Below, one piece after another: positions 2 through 36,365 of a stretch of DNA of 64,000 bases. Every line of letters begins with the position of its first letter. Positions within the stretch are counted from its first letter, which is position 1. Source of the DNA: Thermoplasmatales archaeon (GTDB lineage: Archaea; Thermoplasmatota; E2; DHVEG-1). Below the pieces are notes generated by a model. The model was not told the origin of the DNA and made no database searches. It was given only the letters and a program-made list of their open reading frames with translations. The position numbers were made by a program, and so were the translations under genes. The stretch covers positions 1,316,889 through 1,380,888 of the forward strand of contig CP070724.1 in the NCBI GenBank assembly GCA_020350825.1, read 5' to 3'.

Positions 2-838
2 ATTCTATTTGTCGGAGCTAGTATTGTATCAGGCATAAATAATGATGTTGAATCAGTCGATGTTATTAATAAGATTGGGACTCTCAATATTGGTACGGAT
101 ACATTTTATCCGATTGATGATACTTTTATTGATAAACCTGATGGCACTAACCTTCCTCGTGGTGATTATGAATATATGATCATTCAAAACGAATATGGAG
201 CAACTCCTGGTTGGCAAATTGATTCTTTGATAACATTTGATATATCATCAGTACCTTCAGATTCAATCATATTATCAGCAGAATTGAAACTCTATTATCA
301 CCAGTGGTATGCAAATAACCCAGCAGGAAGACAGTTGAATCTTTATAAAATTACAAGCGATTGGGATGAAGAAACAGCAACATGGAATAACCAACCATCT
401 TATGCATCTCAACCTACTACAAGTTCACCTGTTCCCTCATCAACTGGTACTTGGATGGAATGGGATGTTACCGAAGATATAAAGGATTTTGTAAGTGGGC
501 AAGAAACCAATTACGGCTGGAAAGTAACTGATGAAAACTACTGGGGAACATTTGATATTCCGCAAACATTTTTCAGAACTAAAGAATCTAGCTATGTCCC
601 TTATCTTGAAATCGAGGTGCTTGTACCACATATGGCGTTCCTATTTGGAAGAATCGAAAACCTCAACACTGAAGGAGATCTCACCACCTTTGATGCAGTA
701 AGATTGCGGTATTTACAATTTTCACCGTTTTCGTTTAATACCTATGTCTCAGGGGAAGAGATTGCAGTTATTGGATCTGGATTGGGAATAATTACTACAG
801 GCTTTGCATTTGGATTCTTTAACAGTGGACTTTTGTAA
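2..838 (+). CDS. Secreted DNRLRE-like domain protein (5' end outside window) with a conserved C-terminal module
   Basis: The frame is open from nt 2 into listed ORF 176..838. Hydrophobic LFVGASIVSG at the window edge looks like a signal or anchor segment. LKLYY, ITSDWDEETATWNNQP and NYGW motifs are typical of DNRLRE-type secreted domains. The last ~67 aa are shared with ORF 10593..12023. Confidence 0.6.
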   Translation: MLFVGASIVSGINNDVESVDVINKIGTLNIGTDTFYPIDDTFIDKPDGTNLPRGDYEYMIIQNEYGATPGWQIDSLITFDISSVPSDSIILSAELKLYYHQWYANNPAGRQLNLYKITSDWDEETATWNNQPSYASQPTTSSPVPSSTGTWMEWDVTEDIKDFVSGQETNYGWKVTDENYWGTFDIPQTFFRTKESSYVPYLEIEVLVPHMAFLFGRIENLNTEGDLTTFDAVRLRYLQFSPFSFNTYVSGEEIAVIGSGLGIITTGFAFGFFNSGLL

Positions 839-866: not shown

Positions 867-953
867 CATTTTAACTACAGAATCATCCACGGATATTCCC
901 AATACTAAGATTGCTGTTTGATTTAAACTGAATTTATGGGGCAAAACTGTCTT

Positions 954-1334
954 TCATACTGATTTCATTTCAACATTACTATAACCCCTTGGCTGGGATT
1001 CAAACAACATACCATACTTGTTCAAAGTCTGAATGATAAACTCAAACAGCTTCCTATACGACACAAATGAATTAGGGTGTTTCATATTAGACATTACATT
1101 TGATTTCCAAGCATCAACATCTGATCTTATTGTCGCCTCCCCGTAATCAATCAGATTCGTATATAATGCTACAACACTCTCCACAACCGTTTCACTACCA
1201 GAACTGTCACTACGGTCATCCTTCACATCCATCATAAAACGATGACTTATCGCCTCATTGCAGCGATTAATCTGACGAAGCCAAACCTGACGGATACTAA
1301 CATATTCAGATGGCAAATCCTTCCTCTCAATCAC
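954..1334 (-). CDS. Hypothetical protein (element ORFan)
   Basis: 126-aa ORF, last gene of the co-directional element operon. It lies 5 nt downstream of the preceding ORF. No recognisable motif. Confidence 0.45.
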   Translation of the reverse strand: MIERKDLPSEYVSIRQVWLRQINRCNEAISHRFMMDVKDDRSDSSGSETVVESVVALYTNLIDYGEATIRSDVDAWKSNVMSNMKHPNSFVSYRKLFEFIIQTLNKYGMLFESQPRGYSNVEMKSV

Positions 1335-1339
1335 ATTAT

Positions 1340-1816
1340 TTACCTCCTATCATCCAGCTTCTGACTAGAACTAAATGAATAAACACCCTGCTCAGCCCGA
1401 GGTATGTTCTCACCGGACAAATGCACAGCCTCAGCAGCAGACAAAGGAAACAAATACAACAACTTATCATACAAAAAATCCCACAACTCACCGATAGGAA
1501 CAGTTATCTCCACCTCCTCGGGACGAGTAGTTTTCAAACTAACCTTATCCGTAGTTAGGTCAGCAAGTCTCATAGCAAGGTTCTGAATAGATGCAAAAGT
1601 AAACCACCCTTTCTCTATCACCATGCTGACAGGATCAGTGGCACCTTGAGAAAGCAAACTCTTCGGCAGCAACTCATAATACATAAGCTTCTCTTTCATA
1701 TCAAGTGATCGGTTATCCCTTATCAGCTGCTGAACCAACATAGACAGTTTCCGCTGGTTAAACAAACAGTCTTCTAACGTATACCGTATCTGCTTCTGTT
1801 TCTCCTTACCTTTCAT
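1340..1816 (-). CDS. Hypothetical protein (element ORFan)
   Basis: 158-aa ORF overlapping the upstream NTPase gene by 11 nt. No recognisable motif. Confidence 0.5.
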   Translation of the reverse strand: MKGKEKQKQIRYTLEDCLFNQRKLSMLVQQLIRDNRSLDMKEKLMYYELLPKSLLSQGATDPVSMVIEKGWFTFASIQNLAMRLADLTTDKVSLKTTRPEEVEITVPIGELWDFLYDKLLYLFPLSAAEAVHLSGENIPRAEQGVYSFSSSQKLDDRR

Positions 1817-2663
1817 CTACTCTTGCCTCCCAATGCAAACCAGAGACAGGTTTGTAAATATCCCTGAAAACAGTCTTACCGAACTTACCACTAAACTCCA
1901 AATATGCCTCGTTGCCACCTATAGGATCCTCATTCAAGTTATCAATAGCTGTCTGCTTAATCCGAGAGACATTCTCAGCCCTAGCACCAGGAAGATAAAT
2001 ACGGATCATAACCTTGCTCCTTATTCTGTGGTCAATATCACTAATACTCTGGCTATTGGTGTGAAGGTTCATCATGCACTTACGGACCTCTTTACAATCA
2101 GAAGCAAATCCACCTATCTTATGGAAAGTCCTACCAGATGTGAACTGCGGACTAATCTCAGATAATTCATCAATATAGACATGCACCCATTCACCGACAC
2201 CCCTAAGAAAATGAATGAAATCCATCCATTTCTTACGGTCACCAAAAAAGACAGCATTGCACACACCAGGCAATGCTTTTTCGTAACCATCCTGATAATC
2301 CTTAAAATATGTAACTTTAGGATATATCTGTTTCAGCTTGTTATCTCTATCATGGAATGTAACCCCTGAGTCTTTTTTCACCATGATGTTGAAGTTACCT
2401 TTGCCGATCTTGACAAACTGCAACGGTGCATTGTAACAGTTGGAGAAAAACATCTTCTCACCGGGGTGATGTTTATTGGTATAATCCAAGAAACTAAGCG
2501 TGACGCTTGTCTTAGCGCTACCCTGACTGCCACTAATCAAACTGAATACTCCACCAGCATCCATATCGTGTATGTGGCATCTTCTAAGTATACGTTCAGC
2601 ATTAATTTCAGATTTCGATAGATCAACAGCTTCATTTTCAACATTTAAATCTTCATTTTTCAA
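1806..2663 (-). CDS. P-loop NTPase (Zot-like or FtsK/HerA-like, possibly DNA translocation/packaging)
   Basis: Walker A-like ISGSQGSAKTS and Walker B VHVYIDELSE. The start as listed is TTG. The gene is embedded in the element operon. Confidence 0.55.
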   Translation of the reverse strand: MKNEDLNVENEAVDLSKSEINAERILRRCHIHDMDAGGVFSLISGSQGSAKTSVTLSFLDYTNKHHPGEKMFFSNCYNAPLQFVKIGKGNFNIMVKKDSGVTFHDRDNKLKQIYPKVTYFKDYQDGYEKALPGVCNAVFFGDRKKWMDFIHFLRGVGEWVHVYIDELSEISPQFTSGRTFHKIGGFASDCKEVRKCMMNLHTNSQSISDIDHRIRSKVMIRIYLPGARAENVSRIKQTAIDNLNEDPIGGNEAYLEFSGKFGKTVFRDIYKPVSGLHWEARVDER

Positions 2664-2818
2664 ATAATTTCACCTCTAATTTCCGAAGGAAAAAAAGAAT
2701 TCATTATGCACCCCACACGGGTGTATAAATATAAGAGCGCTAAGCACAAATACTGGCATATAAGCAAAAAACCAAGTAATATTTCGAATATCTTTATCAT
2801 GGCACGATTTGGTGTCAT
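2660..2818 (-). CDS. Small hydrophobic protein (52 aa, one predicted TM helix), not in the ORF track
   Basis: My translation is MTPNRAMIKIFEILLGFLLICQYLCLALLYLYTRVGCIMNSFFPSEIRGEII. The ATG directly follows the stop of ORF 2819..3022. Its TGA overlaps the TTG start of ORF 1806..2663 (TTGA). Confidence 0.35.
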   Translation of the reverse strand: MTPNRAMIKIFEILLGFLLICQYLCLALLYLYTRVGCIMNSFFPSEIRGEII

Positions 2819-3022
2819 TTATCCCCCATTTCTATCTGTTGCTTCATACTTTATCTTTAACTCCTCAAATATAGTAATAGCAGTCTTCTTAGCATCCTGC
2901 GGTTCTTTGTTGTAGATTTTAACGGTAAAATTTACACCCTTACTCGTCTGCTTGAGTTCTACACTGCTAATGGATTCTTTGACTTCATTGGTTATGGTTT
3001 CGTTAGCCATAGGGGAGATCAC
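2819..3022 (-). CDS. Hypothetical small protein (element ORFan)
   Basis: 67-aa ORF with a 4-nt overlap with the upstream ORF, consistent with translational coupling. Confidence 0.45.
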   Translation of the reverse strand: MISPMANETITNEVKESISSVELKQTSKGVNFTVKIYNKEPQDAKKTAITIFEELKIKYEATDRNGG

Positions 3023-3309
3023 TCTCCCCCTTTGGCTTTGTCAATCTCTTCCGATAGTGTTTTCCTGGTGTAGCTTTCAGGATTCTTGATACCTAGTTTC
3101 TTGGCATATCCGATCTGTTTAGCAGTAGGTGAACCATCTTCGTTGTTGCCGATAAAATAATGATAAGGTGAGATTATTTTATCCAGTATTGCTACTACTA
3201 CGTTGCCCTGTAGTTTTTCATCTTCATTGGGTACTATTCCTTTCGCTGCATTCTGTGCGAATTTCCAGCTTTCTTTTATGTGATTTTCATATTCTTTTTC
3301 TTTCTCCAT
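3019..3309 (-). CDS. Hypothetical protein (element ORFan)
   Basis: 96-aa ORF lying 3 nt downstream of the Rep-like gene. Contains a PTAKQIGYAKKLGI helix-like motif. No confident family. Confidence 0.5.
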   Translation of the reverse strand: MEKEKEYENHIKESWKFAQNAAKGIVPNEDEKLQGNVVVAILDKIISPYHYFIGNNEDGSPTAKQIGYAKKLGIKNPESYTRKTLSEEIDKAKGGE

Positions 3310-3312
3310 ATT

Positions 3313-5250
3313 TTATTTACCTCCCATAAACACTAATTTTTTCCCCAAGAGTTCTTCGAAAAAGATGTTCCGTTCCAGACAATCATCGATAAAAGGCTGT
3401 CCGTATTTCTCTAAAACAAGCTCGTAGTTGTCGTCAGGATGCTTTTTGATTATTTGGATTGAATCTGTTATTTTCTCATTTAACAAAAAACGCTCTGTAT
3501 TTTCATCCTCAACCTCCTCAGACCCCTCAATCTCGTCAGTTGAGGGTTTGAGGGGTTTGGGAGGGTTGAGGAGTTGGAATCTAGACACTTTTTCAAAAAT
3601 GTCGTTGTAACCATGATTTTGTAAAACGCTGACAAACTCAGATACATTGATAATGTATTTACGTTTACCGCCCTGGCTATACCCAAGATTTTCTTTTTTC
3701 TGTATAAGACCAAGACCATCCAGTATCTTCCGGGGTTTCTGATCACTCGGTGCATACTTGTCATTCGGTGAAAGGTCAAATCTATTCAACAATGCCTCAT
3801 ACAACGTCTCATTCAGAACTTCTACAAAAGCTGAGGTATCAACGTTGATTTGATCTGCAATAGAATCAAGGATGACAAACTCCATCGTCTGAGCATGTTC
3901 TATCTGCAAAACAGGTGCTTTTTCTTCCAGATACTGTTTAACCTTCAACGCATACTCGTTTCCCTTGAAATGCCTGATAATACCCAAAATGATGCTGTTC
4001 TTATCTGTCTCCCTACCAAAAACACCTTCGTCCTCCAAGAGGTTCTTCATCTCTCCAATATCTGATAGGATTTCCTTCCAGTTACAGAGACAGTATACAA
4101 ACAACTTGTTCCTGATAAATTGGAAATGCTTCAACTCCTTGTCACTCAGGTTGAAAATGTTCTTTAATTTCTTGTTGGTTTTAACCTGTAGAATAACATG
4201 ACAGCGGTCTATGAAACTAGGGTCAAAACCTGTGAGATTATTACAGGTAAAAGATTTCATCCCGTAGGTGTTGAAACCTACAACCTGTCTTGTGATATCC
4301 TTCACACCCATGTTGGTTATGGTGTATTTCCCATACTTGTTGAAACCAGTGTTGAACACGTTCACAAGAAGGTTTTTCTCCTCCTTGCTCATCTTCTCGA
4401 ACTCATCCTGATTTAAAGCTATTGAAAACTGATGGATCAACCGTACACTACTGGGAACACTGCCTTTTCCACCAAAGCGACCGTTGAACTGCAAAAACGA
4501 CAATAATGTTAGACCAGTGCTTTTACCAGCGCCCATGCCACCTAGAAAAACCAGGTAGAATACATTCCCCAACAAGTGGATAATATAGGTTACTATAGAA
4601 GCAGTACATAAGACATCGTATTCATACGTGCTGGGGTGAAAATAGTATTTCTTTACTGTTGAACTGACTTCGTTGTATATCTCCTTGGTGTAGATCTTGT
4701 TATTAACAATATTTTGTATTGCTTCGTTATCTATTGTGTTGATCCCATGTGTTTCATCAAAAAACACAGGTTGAGAATATTTATACCTGATATTCTTGTG
4801 TTTGAAGAACTGGTACTGTTCTTCTTTTGGCACGTCCTTTATTTTCTTGTAAACAGGTTTACCGTCATCGTCCAATGTTTCATTTATAAGTATCTTAGCG
4901 TTGTCACGTACAACCTCCAACTTGCCATTGCTCAACAACACAACTGGTGTATGTTTTCCCTGTTTCCGTGCAAAGACAGTGTGGAAAAACAAATCATCAA
5001 CTTCATTGTACAAGAGACCACTGAGAAACGATGTTATCCTGAATCGTTCCTCATCCTCAGGAGTATCCATTATATTCTCAAGAAACTCGACAATTTCTTC
5101 ATGTCTATCTATCTCCGCAACCTCTTGTTGTATCAGTTTGTCGATTTCCCTGCTTTCCCTTAATTTTATCTGTTCTTCATGTCTTCTAAGCTGCTCTTGG
5201 TGTATCTGCAGCTCATCGTGATGGTCCATTGTTGTCCTCCTGTGAAACAA
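3313..5250 (-). CDS. Replication-type P-loop NTPase (SF3 helicase-like / P4-D5-like), N-terminal ~230 aa of unknown fold
   Basis: Walker A FLGGMGAGKSTGL, Walker B ALNQDEFEK, and an Asn-containing sensor-like VNVFNTGFN. The C-terminal region looks wHTH-like. It is the largest ORF of the element. Confidence 0.55.
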   Translation of the reverse strand: MFHRRTTMDHHDELQIHQEQLRRHEEQIKLRESREIDKLIQQEVAEIDRHEEIVEFLENIMDTPEDEERFRITSFLSGLLYNEVDDLFFHTVFARKQGKHTPVVLLSNGKLEVVRDNAKILINETLDDDGKPVYKKIKDVPKEEQYQFFKHKNIRYKYSQPVFFDETHGINTIDNEAIQNIVNNKIYTKEIYNEVSSTVKKYYFHPSTYEYDVLCTASIVTYIIHLLGNVFYLVFLGGMGAGKSTGLTLLSFLQFNGRFGGKGSVPSSVRLIHQFSIALNQDEFEKMSKEEKNLLVNVFNTGFNKYGKYTITNMGVKDITRQVVGFNTYGMKSFTCNNLTGFDPSFIDRCHVILQVKTNKKLKNIFNLSDKELKHFQFIRNKLFVYCLCNWKEILSDIGEMKNLLEDEGVFGRETDKNSIILGIIRHFKGNEYALKVKQYLEEKAPVLQIEHAQTMEFVILDSIADQINVDTSAFVEVLNETLYEALLNRFDLSPNDKYAPSDQKPRKILDGLGLIQKKENLGYSQGGKRKYIINVSEFVSVLQNHGYNDIFEKVSRFQLLNPPKPLKPSTDEIEGSEEVEDENTERFLLNEKITDSIQIIKKHPDDNYELVLEKYGQPFIDDCLERNIFFEELLGKKLVFMGGK

Positions 5251-5398
5251 TCCAAAGTTTGTCGTTGGATTCTTTAAAAATAATCAATCGTTCAACATAA
5301 GGAGTATTAGTTACTAAATCCTTGAAAAAGGGTATATTTTCAGGTAGAATATGAACTACACAAGCTGCAACAATAGGTTTAGAATGATCCTGGTTCAT
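5213..5398 (-). CDS. Hypothetical small protein (element)
   Basis: 61-aa ORF overlapping the 5' end of the Rep-like gene. No motif. Confidence 0.3.
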   Translation of the reverse strand: MNQDHSKPIVAACVVHILPENIPFFKDLVTNTPYVERLIIFKESNDKLWIVSQEDNNGPSR

Positions 5399-5463
5399 GG
5401 TTTACCTTCCCTTGTTTTTTATCCATTTCCAAAAGTAGGTCGTAAAATTCTTGGGGAGAAACA

Positions 5464-5613
5464 TTATCCTGTTGCATCTTGTTCTCCTCCACAAAAAGCA
5501 GTAATAATTTGTCTCAATGCGCAACTGATGCTTGTCTTCTGTTTTTCAGCATATTCTTCGAGAAGAGATACAGATTCAGCATCAAGCACATACGATTTTG
5601 TTTTTAATTCCAT
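5464..5613 (-). CDS. Ribbon-helix-helix (CopG/Arc-like) small regulator, 49 aa, not in the ORF track
   Basis: My translation is MELKTKSYVLDAESVSLLEEYAEKQKTSISCALRQIITAFCGGEQDATG. The beta-strand then helix-helix pattern is typical of RHH proteins. It is the first gene after the divergent promoter. Confidence 0.4.
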   Translation of the reverse strand: MELKTKSYVLDAESVSLLEEYAEKQKTSISCALRQIITAFCGGEQDATG

Positions 5614-5647
5614 AATTCTTAAATAGTAACTGTTGATATATATATTT

Positions 5648-5704
5648 AAAATAAGTATATCTCAAATAAAGTATGTTTACTTTGAACACAACAAAATAAG
5701 TATA
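5648..5704. promoter_or_regulatory. Divergent promoter/operator of the element with AAAATAAGTATA direct repeats
   Basis: An identical 12-mer occurs at 5648-5659 and 5693-5704, with a degenerate copy AAATAAAGTATG at 5664-5675. TATA-rich sequence lies at 5636-5647. The region sits between the RHH gene (-) and ORF 5721 (+). Confidence 0.4.
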
Positions 5705-5720
5705 GTTAAGGTGAAGTTAA

Positions 5721-6551
5721 ATGAAGAAAGAAAAAACACCCAAGATAATGAATTTAGATGAAAAAATATATCTCCTTTGCTATGGAAAATCTAGATATAC
5801 AACAGAAATTGCAGAATTGATCTATGGGAAAGAAGAAAGACAACGATACCCAACAATTACAGGAAAAAATGGAATTATCGCAGAAATGGTGAAAAATAAT
5901 GAACTTACAGAAATACCAATAGAATCAGGAGAAATGGAAGCAATGTTTATTCCAATAAAACCAAAGATAGATACCACAGATGGTAGATCAAAAACATTAA
6001 GAAAATATTACCTTTCTAAAACAACTCCAATTTTTAACAGTATTGTATCTATCTTTAAAGAAAAAAAAATCACTTTGACCAAAGAAGAAAATGAAAATAT
6101 ATTATTTGTTTTAAACTCTCCTGAATATAGAGAATTAATAGAAAATAATCTACCAAAAAAAGAAGTTAATGGTGAAATACAACCTGATATATCTTTAGAT
6201 ATTAATCCAGGTTGGTTTATTATTTCTTCATTTTGTAACACTGCAGGGGTGGTATATGGTATAAAGCATCATTTGAAAAACAGAGGTATATCAGAATCTA
6301 TGATCCTTAAAAGATGGGATTCTGTTTCAGATACAAAACTTAGAAAATACGGACAAAAACAACGGATTATCCAAACAGCGTTAGAAATTCTCAATAAAAG
6401 TATGGGAAATGTAATAGGAAGTAAAAAAGCAGCAAAACTATTCCTAGAAATGAAATTACCTTTGCTCCATAAGTTATCACAGGTAACGACAGAAGGACCA
6501 GTAAATGCTGCATTAATTCTTGCAGGTTCCATCCTAGGGAACCATCATTAA
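5721..6551 (+). CDS. Hypothetical protein with possible N-terminal winged-helix DNA-binding domain
   Basis: 276-aa ORF divergent from the element operon. The N-terminus LDEKIYLLCYGKSRYTTEIAELIYG is HTH-like. It overlaps the integrase stop by 4 nt (convergent). Confidence 0.5.
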   Translation: MKKEKTPKIMNLDEKIYLLCYGKSRYTTEIAELIYGKEERQRYPTITGKNGIIAEMVKNNELTEIPIESGEMEAMFIPIKPKIDTTDGRSKTLRKYYLSKTTPIFNSIVSIFKEKKITLTKEENENILFVLNSPEYRELIENNLPKKEVNGEIQPDISLDINPGWFIISSFCNTAGVVYGIKHHLKNRGISESMILKRWDSVSDTKLRKYGQKQRIIQTALEILNKSMGNVIGSKKAAKLFLEMKLPLLHKLSQVTTEGPVNAALILAGSILGNHH

Positions 6552-7798
6552 TCCTTCTTATCTATTTCTTCTTTTATCAACTTTGCCAGTTCACTTCTAA
6601 GTGCGGGATTGCTTATTATCTCCTGTGCTATGTTTTTTGTTTGTATGCGTTCTCTTAATTCTTGTATTTCCTTATCTTTCTCTTTTAACTGTTCATTAAA
6701 AGTCGTAATTTGTCTTTCATGCTCCTTAAACTTTGGTTTGTATTTGGAATCCATCAAAGACATATCTGAAAACACAGAGAGGCAATCACAATATTCCTCA
6801 TATGACTTCTGTAATTGCTCAGATCTGAATTTTCCATATTTGGTATCCATCCCTTTCTTATGCCCAAAGATTGTATCAAGATGATTCTTGTTAATCTGTG
6901 TACTCATCATCTGAGTTTTTGCAAATTTCCTAAGAGTGTGAATATGATATTTATAATGGGGGTATATCAACTGGGGATTGTCATCTTTTTCGTTAAATGG
7001 TTGTCCTGATGATTCTAACAAGCGATTCCACATTCTAACTGCTGTAGAATAATTAAACGGAAAAATTCTGGGGTCAGTATTTGCATACTCTTCAAATGAA
7101 ATTTCTTTCTCATCTTTAAATAAATGATATTCCTTATCAAAATATTTCCATGTGTAACCTTGCTGTCTTAGTTGTCTTCTCACATATGCTGATTTCTGGA
7201 TTTTCTCTTTAATGTACTTTGTCCTTACTTTTAACCATTCATCTAAAGCTTCTCTTGCCTCTATTGTTATAAAAGTATGGCGTTTGTATCTTTTTTTTGC
7301 AGATTTTGCTTGAATTATAATATGTCTATCTTCAATATCATTAATTGTCAAGGATAGGGTTTCATTTATTCTTTCTCCTGATGTAGCATTTACCAAAAAT
7401 AAAGCTCTATCTTTTATTGTTCCATGCTGAAGAATTTGTTTTAACTCAGAGTTATCAGGAATCTTTTCATCAATTATTTCTGTATCACCCTCTAAATGAT
7501 TATTCAGTTTAATCTGTTTCCATACTCTTGGTTTTATAGATACGTCATTATCGGCTAAAAAATTCTTAATTATATTCAGTATTGCTTTTTGTGTCCCAGG
7601 AGCATAAACATCACGGATAAATACAGAAAACTTTCTTACATCATCCTCATAATCTCTTTTTGATTTAAAATATGTATCAGGTTCAACTCCCAAGAAATCA
7701 AAATATCTTTTCAATAATGATTTATACGATCTCTGAGTTTTTTCACTACCAATCCATTTTACAAAATCTTCTACTATTTTACTTTCTTTTTCCATCAT
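6548..7798 (-). CDS. Tyrosine recombinase / integrase (phage-integrase family) with C-terminal coiled-coil extension
   Basis: N-terminal SAM-like KTQRSYKSLLKRYFDFLG, box I TSGERINETLSLTINDI, a beta-hairpin Lys region, box II HIHTLRKFAKT, and GHKKGMDTKYGKF containing the catalytic Tyr. Confidence 0.85.
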   Translation of the reverse strand: MMEKESKIVEDFVKWIGSEKTQRSYKSLLKRYFDFLGVEPDTYFKSKRDYEDDVRKFSVFIRDVYAPGTQKAILNIIKNFLADNDVSIKPRVWKQIKLNNHLEGDTEIIDEKIPDNSELKQILQHGTIKDRALFLVNATSGERINETLSLTINDIEDRHIIIQAKSAKKRYKRHTFITIEAREALDEWLKVRTKYIKEKIQKSAYVRRQLRQQGYTWKYFDKEYHLFKDEKEISFEEYANTDPRIFPFNYSTAVRMWNRLLESSGQPFNEKDDNPQLIYPHYKYHIHTLRKFAKTQMMSTQINKNHLDTIFGHKKGMDTKYGKFRSEQLQKSYEEYCDCLSVFSDMSLMDSKYKPKFKEHERQITTFNEQLKEKDKEIQELRERIQTKNIAQEIISNPALRSELAKLIKEEIDKKD

Positions 7799-7855
7799 TC
7801 ATCAAAATATCAAATCGAAGATGAAATATATAAATCTATCTGTCAACAAATATTT

Positions 7856-8581
7856 TCATCTCATAAAATTCCACGCGTTATTAAGATATCTTTCTTTCAG
7901 TAATTTATCTATTAAATTATTTTCATATGTTGAAAACGTAGTTTTTTCAATAATGGTATTAAAGTACATTTCAAATTCTTTTATCAATCCTTCTTTGATA
8001 TCTCTCATAGAAGGTGCATTACCAATTTCCTTACTAATAGTTGATACCTTTTCATTTTTAGGTTTTTTAAGCACTGTGTTCATTAACTCTAAATTGGTAT
8101 CAATAAGGAGAGATCCATGTATAAGTACAATATTACCTTTTTTAATCTGAGCCGAACCTGAAATTTTTTTTCTGTTGAGAAGAATGTCATTTGGCGGTTT
8201 GTAGACAGTATCTATATCAAATCTTTCTAACATATTTACAAGGGACATACAAACATTTTCAAATATATCCTGAGATGATTTTAACTCCTTACTATCCATA
8301 TCGAATACCAAACTGTAAATGAGACACTTCTTATCAGTATATATTGTACCTCCCCCTGTTGTTCTCCTTACTATTTTCACATTGTTTTTTAAACATTCCT
8401 CCAGGTTGATATCCTCATGTATTTTCCTCGATCTGCCGATGGATACCGCTGCAGGTTTTCTTCTGTAGAAATGAAGGGTATTTTCAATCTTCTTTTCTTT
8501 TTTTGCTTGAGATATTGCCTCATCTGCTGCAGTGACATAAAAAGGATCTGCGATGTCTGTGTCTATTAACCTCCAGCCCAT
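7856..8581 (-). CDS. lplA: Lipoate-protein ligase A, catalytic domain only
   Basis: RRTTGGGTIYTD and KISGSAQ motifs. At 241 aa it lacks a C-terminal accessory domain. Confidence 0.85.
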   Translation of the reverse strand: MGWRLIDTDIADPFYVTAADEAISQAKKEKKIENTLHFYRRKPAAVSIGRSRKIHEDINLEECLKNNVKIVRRTTGGGTIYTDKKCLIYSLVFDMDSKELKSSQDIFENVCMSLVNMLERFDIDTVYKPPNDILLNRKKISGSAQIKKGNIVLIHGSLLIDTNLELMNTVLKKPKNEKVSTISKEIGNAPSMRDIKEGLIKEFEMYFNTIIEKTTFSTYENNLIDKLLKERYLNNAWNFMR

Positions 8582-10468: not shown

Positions 10469-10607
10469 ATTAAAAGATAAATAACTGATCGAAAAAAAAG
10501 CATCCAATTTCATATAAATTATTATTGGTTATTCCTGTTTTTATTTTATACCAAACATTTAAATTCGATTACCTGATTACAACTCTTATATTTTGGGGGA
10601 AAAGAAA

Positions 10608-12023
10608 ATGAAAAAGAAAATAATGGGTATATTTATCTGTACGCTGTTAATTGCAGCTGCTGTTTTACCAGTAGCTGGAACTATAGAAAGTAAAAATATA
10701 AGGAAGGTGAATCCTAAGAGAGGTATGCTGTTGCAACCGCCTGAAACATGGAATAAGACATTCGGTATAATCACTGCAGACAATGGATATTTCGTGCAAG
10801 AGACCACTGATGGAGGTTATATCGTTGTGGGCTCGACCTATTCCGGGGGAATTCCTGATGTCTATTTGATCAAAACTGATGCCAATGGAATCAAACAATG
10901 GGATTCAACACCATTTTCTGGAGGTATTGGTTATTGTGTTCAGCAGACTACCGATGGTGGTTACATCATAACAGGTTCAACCTTCGGAATTAGTGATGCT
11001 TTGTTGGTTAAGACAGATGCAAATGGCGTTGAACAATGGAATACAACCTTTGGTGCGACTAAATTTGATGCTGGCTATTCCGTTAAGCAGACAACAGACG
11101 GAGGGTACATCATAGCAGGTGCATATACATACGTTCCTCCACCGGGAACTTATGATGCCTGGTTGATTAAGACTGACTCTAACGGCGTTCAACAATGGGA
11201 TCAAAAATTTGGTGGTACTTTTTCAGATTATGCCTATTCAGTACAGCAGACGAGTGATGGAGGCTATATTCTTGCAGGCTCAACCAATCCCACTAATACT
11301 AACGATGATGTCTATTTAATCAAAACCGATGCATCTGGAAATCCGATGTGGACGAAATCCTATGGAGGGGGAAATGATGATTACGGCCAATCAGTTCAAC
11401 AGACTGGTGACGGAGGTTATATTATAGCAGGATGGACTGATTCCTTTGGTGCAGGACTCACTGATGTTTATTTGATTAAGACTGATGCAAGTGGGAACAC
11501 TGGATGGACAAAGACATATGGAGGGGCAAATTACGATGACGGCAGATCTGTCTGGCAGACTTCAGATGGAGGGTACATCATAGCAGGCTCAACCTCCTCT
11601 TTCGGAGCTGGATTTAGTGATATTTATCTGATAAAAACCGATACAACTGGCAATGAGCAGTGGAATGAAACCTTTGGTGGAGCACAAAATGACCATGGTT
11701 ATTGGGCCCAGGAAACCACTGATGGTGGCTACATCATCGTAGGAGATACAAGTTCTTATGGCGCAGGATCTTCTGATGTTTGGTTAATAAAAATTGGAGG
11801 AGCAGGACCCACATTAAAATCCACATTCCTTCTAGGATTAATTACCAACCTCAACACAGGTGTAACACAATCCACATTTGATTCAGTTATCTTATTGTAT
11901 TTACAGTTCAATCCATTCAATTTTGGAATATATAGCTCTGGTGAGACGGTAACGGTATCGAATCAGTACAGTGGAATCTTAACCCAAAGTTTTGCAATTG
12001 GATTTTTCAACACTGATATCTAA
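10608..12023 (+). CDS. Secreted seven-repeat (beta-propeller-like) protein with the shared C-terminal module
   Basis: Signal peptide MKKKIMGIFICTLLIAAAVLPVAG. There are seven repeats of Q(T/E)TDGGYI(I/V)(A/V)G...D(V/A)(Y/W)LIKTD..G...W. The listed ORF starts at 10593 (TTG); the ATG at 10608 is preferred. Confidence 0.75.
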   Translation: MKKKIMGIFICTLLIAAAVLPVAGTIESKNIRKVNPKRGMLLQPPETWNKTFGIITADNGYFVQETTDGGYIVVGSTYSGGIPDVYLIKTDANGIKQWDSTPFSGGIGYCVQQTTDGGYIITGSTFGISDALLVKTDANGVEQWNTTFGATKFDAGYSVKQTTDGGYIIAGAYTYVPPPGTYDAWLIKTDSNGVQQWDQKFGGTFSDYAYSVQQTSDGGYILAGSTNPTNTNDDVYLIKTDASGNPMWTKSYGGGNDDYGQSVQQTGDGGYIIAGWTDSFGAGLTDVYLIKTDASGNTGWTKTYGGANYDDGRSVWQTSDGGYIIAGSTSSFGAGFSDIYLIKTDTTGNEQWNETFGGAQNDHGYWAQETTDGGYIIVGDTSSYGAGSSDVWLIKIGGAGPTLKSTFLLGLITNLNTGVTQSTFDSVILLYLQFNPFNFGIYSSGETVTVSNQYSGILTQSFAIGFFNTDI

Positions 12024-36291: not shown

Positions 36292-36365
36292 GGATCTGTA
36301 GTGTAGCTTGGATATCACAGGGGCTTCCGGAGCCTCTGACCCGGGTTCGAATCCCGGCAGATCCG
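36292..36365 (+). tRNA. tRNA-Arg (anticodon CCG)
   Basis: Acceptor GGATCTG/CAGATCC, anticodon arm GGGGC-TTCCGGA-GCCTC, T arm CCGGG-TTCGAAT-CCCGG, discriminator G. 74 nt. Confidence 0.9.

Follow-up and report, generated by a model that had tools for sequence, protein, structure and literature searches.

A putative integrative, plasmid-like element inserted beside lplA in an uncultured Thermoplasmatales archaeon

The small integrative plasmids of the pRN family in Sulfolobales (pXZ1, pSSVi and the satellite pSSVx) are 5-8 kb long. They place a CopG-like ribbon-helix-helix (RHH) gene upstream of a large Rep ATPase and carry a separate DNA-binding regulator and, in some members, a tyrosine integrase; pSSVx and pSSVi also hold a couple of virus-derived genes, an ATPase among them. 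Another ATPase family, that of PAV1 ORF375, tn2-8p and p12-10p, is common to the Pyrococcus abyssi virus PAV1, pTN2-like Thermococcales plasmids, the M. voltae A3-VLP and haloarchaeal plasmids; published work restricts it to viruses and plasmids (PMC2926602, PMC3543421). Protein-coding genes, not tRNAs, are the targets of integrated mobile elements in other archaea, such as the iMGE of Thaumarchaeota (PMC6563490).

Here we describe a compact gene block of ~7 kb (~954-7849) from an uncultured Thermoplasmatales archaeon, inserted directly 3' of the lipoate-ligase gene lplA within the 64-kb stretch of DNA analysed (the window). With reasonable though far from full confidence, we take it for an integrative, plasmid-like mobile element (an integrative cryptic plasmid) with three modules. 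Its overall layout parallels that of known archaeal integrative plasmids. It resembles the pRN family in size, in an RHH-like gene before Rep, in a separate putative regulator and in its integrase, and carries an ATPase as do pSSVx and pSSVi. In contrast to that family, no prim-pol domain is detectable in its Rep, which none of the searches identifies as an ORF904 homologue, no element protein matches PlrA, the target is not a tRNA, and the integrase gene is intact when integrated; no sequence relationship extends past generic families.

As in the PAV1/pTN2 family, the ATPase gene is grouped with short genes into a small conserved cassette, on capsid-less replicons. However, the match to that family covers part of the protein at no more than 24-30% identity, and the ATPase has 285 aa instead of about 375; the small genes lie 3' of it rather than 5' and show no similarity to ORF137/ORF180b; the host is a mesophilic, AT-rich member of the Thermoplasmatota, and the replication protein differs. 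The Thaumarchaeota iMGE (PMC6563490) are alike in their non-split tyrosine integrase, their site-specific insertion at the end of a protein gene and their small, cryptic plasmid-like nature, but differ in host phylum and gene content. The element is part of a widespread group that no curated family or publication located by us describes. An earlier note, made from the sequence alone, had called the type unrecognised; this is fair for the element, with the qualification that its ATPase is distantly related to the known PAV1 ORF375 / pTN2 tn2-8p proteins and its Rep falls within a large, primase-associated family of AAA+ helicases.

Layout, insertion site and mobility

The features of the locus are the following (window coordinates, strand).

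839-953, no strand: spacer past the last conserved gene, element arm or host; no similarity to other copies
954-1334, minus: 126-aa soluble protein, cassette gene 3; homologues in nine loci, dN/dS 0.06-0.11
1340-1816, minus: 158-aa soluble protein, cassette gene 2, always 3' of the ATPase; dN/dS 0.11
1806-2663, minus: 285-aa ATPase, FtsK/HerA-like fold; AF2, Foldseek, tblastn, PHROG 22963
2664-2818, minus: probable non-coding leader/promoter of the ATPase cassette (former 52-aa ORF 2660-2818); dN/dS, alignment of seven elements
2819-3022, minus: 67-aa conserved ORFan, last rep-operon gene; homologues in six elements, dN/dS 0.075
3019-3309, minus: 96-aa conserved protein, weak SAP/Rho_N-like C-terminal motif; homologues in five elements, dN/dS 0.18
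3313-5229, minus: Rep, AAA+ P-loop helicase/initiator-like, C-terminal winged helix, 638 aa (645 from TTG); motifs, AF2, Foldseek
3506-3573, no strand: conserved imperfect hairpin in the 3' part of rep, 3+3 inverted TGAGG repeats, 9-nt period; TRF arrays, DNA fold
5213-5398, minus: 61-aa conserved ORFan overlapping the rep start; homologues in six elements, dN/dS 0.28
5464-5613, minus: 49-aa putative RHH (CopG-like) regulator, first rep-operon gene; weak Pfam RHH_1 match
5614-5720, no strand: AT-rich stretch that parts the RHH operon from the divergent 276-aa gene, putative control region; repeats
5721-6551, plus: 276-aa protein encoded divergently from the rep operon, possible DNA-binding regulator; syntenic homologues (L001, L009, L046)
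6548-7798, minus: 416-aa tyrosine recombinase (integrase), C-terminal coiled-coil tail; Pfam PF00589, PHROG 216, catalytic residues
7799-7849, no strand: integrase-proximal arm, from the junction to the int start codon; not homologous to the empty sites
7850-7862, no strand: host/insert junction, integrase side; alignment with empty sites L044 and L045

The ORFs and overlaps of the earlier note were reproduced (minus strand for 954-1334 through 5464-5613 and for the integrase at 6548-7798, plus strand for 5721-6551). Of its borders, 900-7810, the right one moves to the mapped junction at 7849 and the left one is approximate only. The compositional contrast it had seen was borne out by measurement: 954-5400 has a GC content of 0.390, where 4.4-kb windows of the host average 0.341 (sd 0.015) and reach 0.374 at most, and 5400-7850, with the AT-rich integrase and ORF 5721, has 0.303. 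All element ORFs other than the 52-aa one have dN/dS of 0.06-0.28 and are thus under purifying selection.

Two relatives (L044, L045) provide the empty sites that the note had proposed to look for: in both, phzF follows lplA 4 bp later. Their alignment places the integrase-side junction at 7849|7850, the insert beginning at 7849 and going leftwards. The lplA stop codon (TGA, 7856-7858) plus AAAATAT, down to 7850, is common to the window and the empty sites, whereas the window no longer has the phzF ATG. Beyond lplA, on the side away from the insert, both relatives and the window are colinear. Arm 7799-7849 and host bases together form a transaldolase-start-like string, ATGAAAATATTTGTTGACA.

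The genes that succeed lplA in both empty sites, phzF-HMGL-radical SAM, are missing from the whole 64-kb window, and with them the expected second junction at phzF. The inserted DNA may therefore extend beyond the mapped block, and the locus may be rearranged. Left of the element lies a gene for a CBM96 secreted protein (2-838), separated from it by the spacer 839-953, which resembles no other copy or locus compared. Repeat searches identified no direct repeats flanking the element as att sites, nor any repeat of the right junction. No tRNA target was found, in agreement with the note; the sole tRNA of the window is at 36292.

Thermoplasmatota MAGs hold the block in four or more further contexts. 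The same gene order adjoins an AsnC-type regulator gene (L001), rps9 (L002), a transaldolase gene (L049) and, in the window, lplA; it also occupies a 6.6-kb contig (L003). The block is mobile, as it recurs in different genomic contexts and the lplA-phzF site is uninterrupted in two close relatives; the integrated mobile element of the earlier note is thereby supported. The element would also exist as an excised circle; no circular, free form turned up among 50 related contigs.

The integration module would consist of the tyrosine recombinase and the divergent 276-aa putative regulator. The recombinase, with the intact catalytic motifs reported earlier, exceeds the cut-off of Pfam PF00589 (40.4 bits against 27.1, E 3.4e-10), matches PHROG 216 (integrase, E 5e-13) and has the complete catalytic set R143, H287-x-x-R290, H313 and Y321; equivalently placed homologues share 28-33% identity with it. 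It would have inserted the element immediately downstream of lplA, parting lplA from phzF. The 276-aa protein, previously held to be wHTH-like, has no family match in profile searches and is now treated as a conserved syntenic family only: it is 33-46% identical to its homologues in L001, L009 and L046 across the N-terminal 57-129 residues. The adjoining region 5614-5720 contains direct repeats and an AT palindrome (repeats D4 and I6), and a 15-nt tandem repeat at 5641-5674. The mosaic origin suggested before is correct because the integrase/276-aa module is exchanged between elements that are otherwise 86% identical but whose integrases share 28-33% identity, a swap that would give near-identical elements differing insertion sites.

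Replication operon and candidate origin

The replication operon would comprise the RHH, 61-aa, Rep, 96-aa and 67-aa genes. For Rep, the P-loop replication-type protein noted earlier with 645 aa (ORF 3313-5250), the likeliest start codon is the ATG at 5229, which gives 638 aa, the deposited form (P0279) and that of relatives. Its invariant residues include the Walker A GxGKS (K243), the Walker B Q281-D-E and R349, and its dN/dS is 0.10. The AF2 model, of moderate quality (pLDDT 71), has a coiled-coil plus beta-rich N-terminal region. The top Foldseek matches are MCM, the NrS-1 helicase (C-terminal region), Cdc6/Orc1, large T antigen and D5, all with low TM-scores of 0.2-0.3.

No Pfam or NCBIfam model matches Rep, nor do plasmid and phage records, save one marginal Acinetobacter plasmid match. 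With the profile of its family, 2789 representative proteins are reached. Of 50 distant relatives, 18 carry Toprim/DnaG domains, others AEP/PrimPol, and a few DUF3631 or the archaeal MCM winged helix; the N-terminal domains of many family members are of DnaG type (zf-CHC2, DNAG_N, Toprim) or AEP type (Prim-Pol, PriCT). Rep thus belongs to an AAA+ helicase family that is large and unnamed, and in which fusion of relatives to a DnaG or AEP primase is frequent. In fold matches and family profile it is like the NrS-1 primase-helicase and t26-22p of pT26-2 (primase-helicases with an AAA+ helicase part, DUF3631-like and MCM/SF3-like), but no primase domain was detected in it.

An RHH-like regulator had also been proposed. 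The Pfam RHH_1 match of the 49-aa ORF is weak and below cut-off (E 0.046); the equivalent gene in L049 also matches RHH_1 weakly, which gives positional support, and at least one Rep relative is fused to an RHH. By analogy with CopG in pRN- and pTN2-type plasmids, this small protein would repress the operon. The match of the 96-aa protein to Pfam Rho_N is likewise below cut-off (E 0.063).

The hairpin inside rep (3506-3573) is a candidate replication origin or Rep-binding site. All elements with a Rep of 69% identity or more have it, its DNA fold z-scores range from -3.3 to -5.0 across five elements, and no other 60-nt window of the block is as conserved (94%, the mean being 74%); covariation support is lacking because the arms are almost invariant. 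The rep stretch under it encodes a disordered linker in the AF2 model. We infer that Rep could assemble on these 3+3 inverted TGAGG iterons within its own gene, using a host primase.

ATPase cassette and competing readings

The third module would be a separately promoted cassette of the FtsK/HerA-fold ATPase and the soluble 158-aa and 126-aa proteins. The 52-aa ORF upstream (2660-2818), once listed as a gene, is probably a conserved non-coding leader: its dN/dS is 0.9-1.5, against 0.06-0.28 in every other ORF. The leader bears a TATA-like box and, at 2673-2701, the conserved motif AATTCTTTTTTTCCTTCGGAAATTAGAGG, which is unique in the window (0 expected by chance) and also precedes the ATPase gene of L001, L002, L018 and L046.

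The ATPase model (pLDDT 91) matches HerA, STIV2 B204, Zot, the PH1 ATPase and A32-like ATPases with TM-scores of about 0.5. It also matches PHROG 22963 (E 6e-14), a group that includes proteins of the ORF375/tn2-8p kind, and, by tblastn, PAV1 ORF375 (E 2e-4) and p12-10p (E 5e-6), as well as tn2-8p and pIRI48 gene 10. On these similarities, it is a distant member of the PAV1 ORF375 / pTN2 tn2-8p / p12-10p family. Its Walker A, GSQGSAKT, was noted as deviant; the motif is present but reflects a family trait, with A in about half and G in about half of 44 homologues at the variable position. Homologues form 151 clusters at 90% identity (E<=1e-3), and a second copy lies in the same 2.32-Mb chromosome, which also speaks for mobility. 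The 158-aa protein has no family match; it is 53-91% identical across 10 loci and invariably follows the ATPase. No other part of the element is as widespread or as well conserved as the cassette, which combines with different backbones in L018, L040, L042 and L046. The cassette may move or partition element DNA, either in segregation or in loading for transfer.

Nothing in the evidence points to an autonomous virus: no transmembrane protein is predicted among the real ORFs, no relative was found in IMG/VR, and family and profile searches including Pfam, PHROG and PADLOC gave no match to capsid or conjugation families and no convincing one to a defence family, in line with the note on capsid and conjugation genes. 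A satellite or plasmid-virus hybrid comparable to the Sulfolobus pSSVx/pSSVi, in which the virus-shared cassette lets a helper virus of the same host package and spread the capsid-less element, is an unlikely alternative that the ATPase nevertheless brings to mind. Its homologues are ORF375 of the spindle-shaped virus PAV1 and pTN2-like plasmid genes, its nearest folds include the viral packaging ATPases STIV2 B204, PH1, A32-like and Zot, and the cassette is conserved and widespread beyond the replication and integration genes, joining different backbones in an element devoid of structural genes of its own; the same plasmid-virus parallel has been drawn for pTN2/PAV1 and pSSVx (PMC2926602). 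Yet TM-scores of about 0.5 do not assign a packaging clade, FtsK/HerA-fold ATPases also fill non-viral roles, the partner proteins match no PAV1 or pTN2 protein, no cassette-bearing contig was found in IMG/VR, and there is no known helper virus.

It is similarly improbable that the block is just one end, the one for replication and integration, of a larger provirus or other integrated element, with its remaining genes, CBM96 included, leftwards off the window. The missing phzF flank, by which the DNA inserted after lplA would measure at least 7.85 kb and run past position 1, would fit, as would the lectin-like adhesins carried by PAV1 and the mostly opposite-strand ORFans or Ig-like/secreted proteins beyond the 126-aa gene in L001, L002, L046 and L049. 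However, those genes show no homology between the loci compared, and DNA homology to L001, L046 and L049 ends right where the 126-aa gene has its stop codon (957/958). In L008 a single secreted-protein gene is directly followed by glutamate dehydrogenase, the C-terminal ~95 aa of the CBM96 protein resemble a syntenic host protein, and rearrangement between the two element copies of the chromosome would equally account for the lost flank. That the block is an island of defence genes or other cargo, or an immobile remnant in decay, and not an active replicon, is very hard to credit. HerA-type ATPases do belong to several anti-phage systems, SIR2-HerA and DUF4297-HerA are among the top fold matches, and the relative in L046 is without integrase; but no PADLOC model matches convincingly, while all genes are intact and under purifying selection, the integrase retains its catalytic residues, and the block occupies several independent insertion contexts.

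Gene block, composition and integrase

The block lies between a secreted-protein gene and lplA, a host lipoate-ligase gene, as the earlier note had placed it. Its features are as follows.

2-838, plus strand: secreted protein with a CBM96 domain, left flank; continues past the window start
5613 down to 954, minus strand: array of ORFs of 49, 61, 645/638, 96, 67, 52, 285, 158 and 126 aa (ORF listing)
3313-5229, minus strand: Rep, an AAA+ P-loop protein resembling replication helicases/initiators; 638 aa from the ATG at 5229, or 645 aa from a TTG
3506-3573: imperfect hairpin inside rep; 9-nt-period arrays that are mutual reverse complements, with 3+3 inverted TGAGG units
2664-2818: ATPase leader; TATA-like box and motif AATTCTTTTTTTCCTTCGGAAATTAGAGG at 2673-2701, just upstream of the ATPase start
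1806-2663, 1340-1816 and 954-1334, minus strand: cassette of the 285-aa ATPase, 158-aa and 126-aa genes
5721-6551, plus strand: 276-aa gene
6548-7798, minus strand: 416-aa gene (integrase)
7856-8581, minus strand: lplA, right flank (Pfam BPL_LplA_LipB)

The tight minus-strand array and the gene overlaps described in the earlier note are all present in the ORF listing; among its roughly ten ORFs, the 52-aa one (2660-2818) falls out as non-coding. In pairwise comparisons with two other copies of the element, dN/dS is 0.06-0.28 for every ORF of the block except this one, at 0.9-1.5, and on this account the stretch is probably a conserved leader and not a gene. The GC-richer composition also holds: GC is 0.390 over 954-5400, against a mean of 0.341 (sd 0.015, maximum 0.374) in 4.4-kb host windows, and the integrase/276-aa part is AT-rich at 0.303. 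The sole tRNA gene of the 64-kb window is 28 kb from the element, in line with the absence of a tRNA target. The C-terminal ~95 residues of the flanking CBM96 protein are 38% identical to a syntenic host protein at 10593-12023, 3 kb to the right of the element; they probably form a common anchoring or sorting domain.

The 416-aa protein scores 40.4 bits with Pfam PF00589 (Phage_integrase; cut-off 27.1) and matches the PHROG annotation 'integrase'. Its catalytic residues, previously judged intact, can be located as R143, H287xxR290, H313 and Y321. Defining a tyrosine recombinase by a score above the curated cut-off together with the R...K...H-x-x-R...H/W...Y set, we classify the protein as one on both counts. 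Among the NCBIfam equivalogs for Xer resolvases (XerA/XerC/XerD), the best is XerA_Arch, with 37.9 bits against a cut-off of 220. An SSV-type ('suicidal') integrase, whose attP lies inside int so that the gene is split upon integration, was rejected: the ORF is intact (416 aa) in the integrated state, and 51 bp separate its start from the junction, which is outside the gene.

Insertion site and exchange of modules

LplA has homologues in L044 (87% identical), a locus of the same MAG as L001, and in L045 (CP070798.1; 80% identical). In both, phzF follows 4 bp after lplA, and HMGL-like and radical-SAM genes come next. Beyond the opposite end of lplA, L044 and the window are colinear for ~10 kb, at ~88% amino-acid identity. 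A DNA alignment with both loci shows homology that covers the lplA stop codon plus AAAATAT, reaches 7850 and ends there: the relatives enter the start of phzF, and the window enters 51 bp of unrelated sequence, followed by the integrase start. The integrase-side junction is precise, between 7849 and 7850, and L044 and L045, with their uninterrupted lplA-phzF, are the empty sites that the earlier note had proposed to look for. Its right border was close to this junction; its left border at ~900 is at best approximate.

The definition of attL and attR, also proposed there, did not succeed. When the window, L001, L002 and L049 were searched for direct and inverted repeats, only AT-rich matches of 8-11 nt came up, at chance level, and the junction core has no copy at the element's other end in the window. 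What marks the insertion site is the empty site together with the integrase-side junction; the counterpart of this junction and a core repeat were both looked for in the window and not found. Two candidates were discarded. The 8-mer ATCAAATC occurs at 838 and 7809, the latter within the insert according to the mapped junction. The pair GAAATGAAA / GAGATGAAA, located where the 126-aa gene (3' end) and lplA stop, has a similar counterpart in L001; it was dropped as an att core because the C-terminal residues beyond it are kept in all copies, which leaves no room for a crossover inside the ORF. The host/insert junction at 7841-7862 reads ATGAAAATATTTGTTGACA. In L049, the transaldolase gene beside the element begins (MKIFVD..., L049 727-745) with almost the same sequence, in the opposite orientation relative to int and with a blastn-short E of 0.02; the likeness could be an att-site mimic or chance.

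The genes phzF, HMGL-like and radical-SAM are found nowhere in the 64-kb window, which implies either that the insertion is larger or that the locus is rearranged at the element. Their absence from the whole window favours a live alternative, in which the block is one end of a larger element, the rest lying outside the window. Against this, DNA homology among the copies runs precisely to the stop codon that closes the 126-aa gene and no further. The genes past that point have no homology between loci, and in L008, a partial copy, a lone secreted-protein gene immediately precedes that for glutamate dehydrogenase. In our reading, the conserved element ends within 839-953 and the chromosome is rearranged at the element. 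Recombination between the two element copies of the chromosome would produce the rearranged flank and remove phzF from the lplA side. If phzF instead lies some kb left of the window behind a repeat of ...ATGAAAATAT, the element would be larger, with extra genes.

Searching a set of 5.8 billion proteins gave 33 relatives of Rep. A common gene order recurs among related loci: int, a ~280-300-aa gene, a small gene in the RHH position, then genes of 61 aa, Rep, 96 aa, 63-67 aa, ATPase, 158 aa and 126-133 aa. It is complete in L001 (a Thermoplasmatota MAG), adjoining an AsnC-type regulator gene; in L002/L004/L007 (a Thermoplasmatales MAG), immediately 3' of rpl18e-rpl13-rps9; on a 6.6-kb contig (L003); and beside a transaldolase gene in L049. 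L008, L009 and L018 hold partial copies. Occurring in several genomic contexts, the block is by all sequence indications mobile, and with the empty site and the junction the earlier interpretation as an integrated mobile element proves largely right. None of the 50 related contigs checked has a terminal overlap, hence none looked circular.

From Rep to the 126-aa gene, the window's DNA is 86% identical to L001 and L049, whereas the integrases are 28-33% and the 276-aa proteins ~33% identical. This argues that the integration module has been swapped as a unit, in agreement with the differing insertion sites, and fits the earlier remark on a mosaic origin. The window's source contig (2,320,818 bp) carries a second copy of the ATPase, 92% identical. 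That copy is protein P0034 (UCF12072.1), outside the window. The relative CP070798.1 (1.92 Mb) has an integrase-less variant that keeps the cassette and in which a different, 401-aa P-loop protein replaces Rep; this variant (L046 5700-12300) adjoins a 100-N assembly gap.

Two further observations concern the ends of related copies. L049 7080-7210 contains two copies, 60 bp apart, of the 15 nt that end the 126-aa gene (GGAAATGAAATCTGT), with L046-like sequence after copy 1 and L001-like downstream sequence after copy 2; this looks like the footprint of recombination between two element variants. L049 8304-8394 and L001 15359-15446 share a non-coding motif of ~70 nt (...TGGCATCTTATTTAAG...TTTTAGC...), 1-5 kb past the elements and upstream of unrelated minus-strand genes; it is missing from the window.

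Replication protein and ATPase cassette

Rep matches no curated family in Pfam or NCBIfam, and PDB sequence searches with the integrase, Rep and the ATPase gave no usable match. Its alignment has an invariant Walker A G242-K243, Walker B Q281-D282-E283 and R349. The AF2 model (pLDDT 71, with low confidence in the ATPase core) comprises an N-terminal coiled coil, a beta-rich domain, the P-loop core, a helical bundle and a winged helix; a disordered acidic linker comes after these five parts. The best Foldseek matches are archaeal/eukaryotic MCM (E 2e-6), RavA, the C-terminal region of the NrS-1 primase-helicase, Cdc6/Orc1, large T antigen and D5, all with TM-scores of 0.2-0.3; assignment to MCM, SF3 or Orc/Cdc6 was taken to require an AAA+ core, Walker A/B, sensor, Arg finger, DNA-binding domains and a profile match to the named family.

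The Rep profile retrieves 2789 proteins at E ≤ 1e-3, 659 of them at E ≤ 1e-10, from 1.84 billion representatives. Many have 800-1100 aa with the Rep-like part C-terminal. In a sample of 50, Toprim occurs in 18, DNAG_N in 9, the CHC2 zinc finger (zf-CHC2) in 7, DUF3631 in 4 and the archaeal MCM winged helix in 2; AEP, Prim-Pol or PriCT domains occur in others. Judged by homology of its helicase part to proteins bearing primase domains, Rep belongs to a family of primase-associated helicases (Toprim/AEP fusions, DUF3631-like). As this part is fused to Toprim, DnaG or AEP domains in many relatives, we read Rep as the half of a primase-helicase replication system that acts as helicase or initiator, in this case lacking a primase domain.

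The hairpin inside rep encodes the disordered linker, yet no other 60-nt stretch of the 4.4-kb block is as conserved (94%, with a mean of 74%). It occurs in all elements with a Rep at least 69% identical, and its fold z-scores are -3.3 to -5.0 in five elements. Its arms are nearly invariant and hence give no covariation evidence; Rfam returned only sub-threshold, miRNA-like matches. Large T antigen and other AAA+/SF3 initiators bind inverted pentamer iterons, and by this analogy we propose the hairpin as a candidate origin or Rep-binding site.

A second conserved site lies in the ATPase leader. The 29 nt of AATTCTTTTTTTCCTTCGGAAATTAGAGG, with a small palindrome TTTCC-TTC-GGAAA, are almost invariant in seven elements, even between elements that are ~65% identical elsewhere. 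Together with the TATA-like box, this motif indicates that the cassette is a separate, regulated transcription unit.

The 285-aa ATPase has 151 homologous clusters (90% identity, E ≤ 1e-3); among the matches listed (120 of the 151), identity to the query is 52-92%. Its Walker A is GSQGSAKT and its Walker B YIDE. The alanine that had made the Walker A seem deviant is present, at a position where G and A alternate across the family; it is not peculiar to this ATPase. The AF2 model is confident (pLDDT 91), with HerA, the STIV2 packaging NTPase B204, the Zot N-domain and TcpA as nearest folds, and Zot, a corticovirus NTPase, the PH1 ATPase and A32-like ATPases as nearest viral models. B204 gives a Foldseek probability of 1.0 and TM-scores of 0.45-0.69; HerA, Zot, TcpA, KaiC and DnaB score similarly. 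A packaging ATPase of the A32/B204/P9 type would be recognised by its clade's fold and a co-occurring (double) jelly-roll capsid gene, and family and PHROG searches of the element gave no capsid candidate beside the ATPase.

By sequence, the ATPase matches PAV1 ORF375 only among 50,697 phage and virus records, and p12-10p, tn2-8p and the pIRI48 homologue only among 72,556 plasmids (tblastn: p12-10p E 5e-6 over residues 21-235, PAV1 ORF375 E 2e-4, tn2-8p E 2e-3). A pairwise comparison gave E 6e-11. Taking as criteria the Walker A and B motifs and homology to the founders that includes the region C-terminal to Walker B, we assign it as a distant member of the PAV1 ORF375 / tn2-8p / p12-10p family. 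This is a virus- and plasmid-specific family of P-loop ATPases without an assigned function, which PAV1, pTN2-like plasmids and the M. voltae A3-VLP encode within a small cassette (PMC2926602, PMC3543421). The soluble 158-aa and 126-aa proteins always follow the ATPase and match nothing in Pfam, PHROG, PADLOC, NCBIfam or the PAV1, pTN2 and pP12-1 ORFs; HMMs of the 158-, 126-, 96- and 67-aa families likewise match none of these ORFs.

Nature of the element

Family searches (Pfam, PHROG, PADLOC, NCBIfam) found no capsid, spike, membrane, conjugation or defence gene in the element, bearing out the earlier note for the first two and for conjugation; PADLOC reports no defence system. A spindle-shaped or pleomorphic virus would carry a small hydrophobic capsid or membrane protein and a large spike or adhesin gene. 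As to PAV1-like viruses, Fuselloviridae and Pleolipoviridae, the real ORFs of the block contain no TM-grade segment and no PHROG structural match, its sole hydrophobic ORF being the 52-aa one, non-coding by dN/dS.

Among plasmids, the pTN2-like family is defined by an SF1 helicase Rep, the primase-polymerase PolpTN2 and an ORF153-like wHTH regulator in all members. The element shares only the ATPase with it: its Rep is an unrelated AAA+ protein, and none of its other proteins matches pTN2, pP12-1 or PAV1 ORFs. The pRN family (pRN1, pSSVx, pSSVi, pXZ1) is defined by an ORF904-type RepA with an N-terminal prim-pol (PF09250) and SF3 helicase, CopG and PlrA, whereas the element's Rep has no PF09250 (Prim-Pol occurs in only 2 of 25 Rep relatives), its RHH match is weak and no protein is PlrA-like. 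Apart from the ORF375-type ATPase, the proteins that define both families are absent. The layout itself, of RHH, large Rep ATPase, separate regulator, integrase and virus-shared ATPase, agrees with pXZ1/pSSVi and pTN2-like plasmids.

Since this layout fits archaeal integrative cryptic plasmids, and there are no virion genes, no circular contig and no relative in IMG/VR scans with the Rep and ATPase profiles, we lean towards a kind of integrative cryptic plasmid. A helper-dependent satellite, for which the cassette would serve packaging, is a live alternative. A bolder variant, which we consider unlikely, is that the cassette and its conserved leader form the minimal DNA-encapsidation or transfer module of an unseen virus lineage of sediment Thermoplasmatota. 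The 6-7-kb elements would then either rank as the smallest integrating archaeal viruses known or be dedicated satellites of an unseen helper, and the proteins of 158 and 126 aa would be new components of a nucleoprotein or capsid.

To our knowledge, almost nothing is known of plasmids and small mobile elements in uncultured sediment Thermoplasmatota, and we found no paper on such elements in this phylum. The 'unrecognised type' of the earlier note stands as an undescribed family, recurrent and modular with swappable integrase cassettes; its parts are a known family of ORF375-type ATPases, a replication helicase from a large family of thousands of unnamed proteins, and exchangeable integrase modules. 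The cassette ties elements of mesophilic Thermoplasmatota to the PAV1/pTN2 gene pool of hyperthermophilic Thermococcales. The element offers a test case for the role of ORF375-type ATPases, a question standing since 2010. Being a small and self-contained replicon whose candidate origin lies within rep, it could serve as a vector backbone.

The ATPase-158-126 cassette also occurs on two contigs without a Rep or integrase of the window's type (L042 1-6887 and L040 2391-4160). One is a string of 15 small ORFs, including a weak prepilin-peptidase (A24) match; in the other, the cassette adjoins glycoside-hydrolase and Big_7 surface-protein genes.
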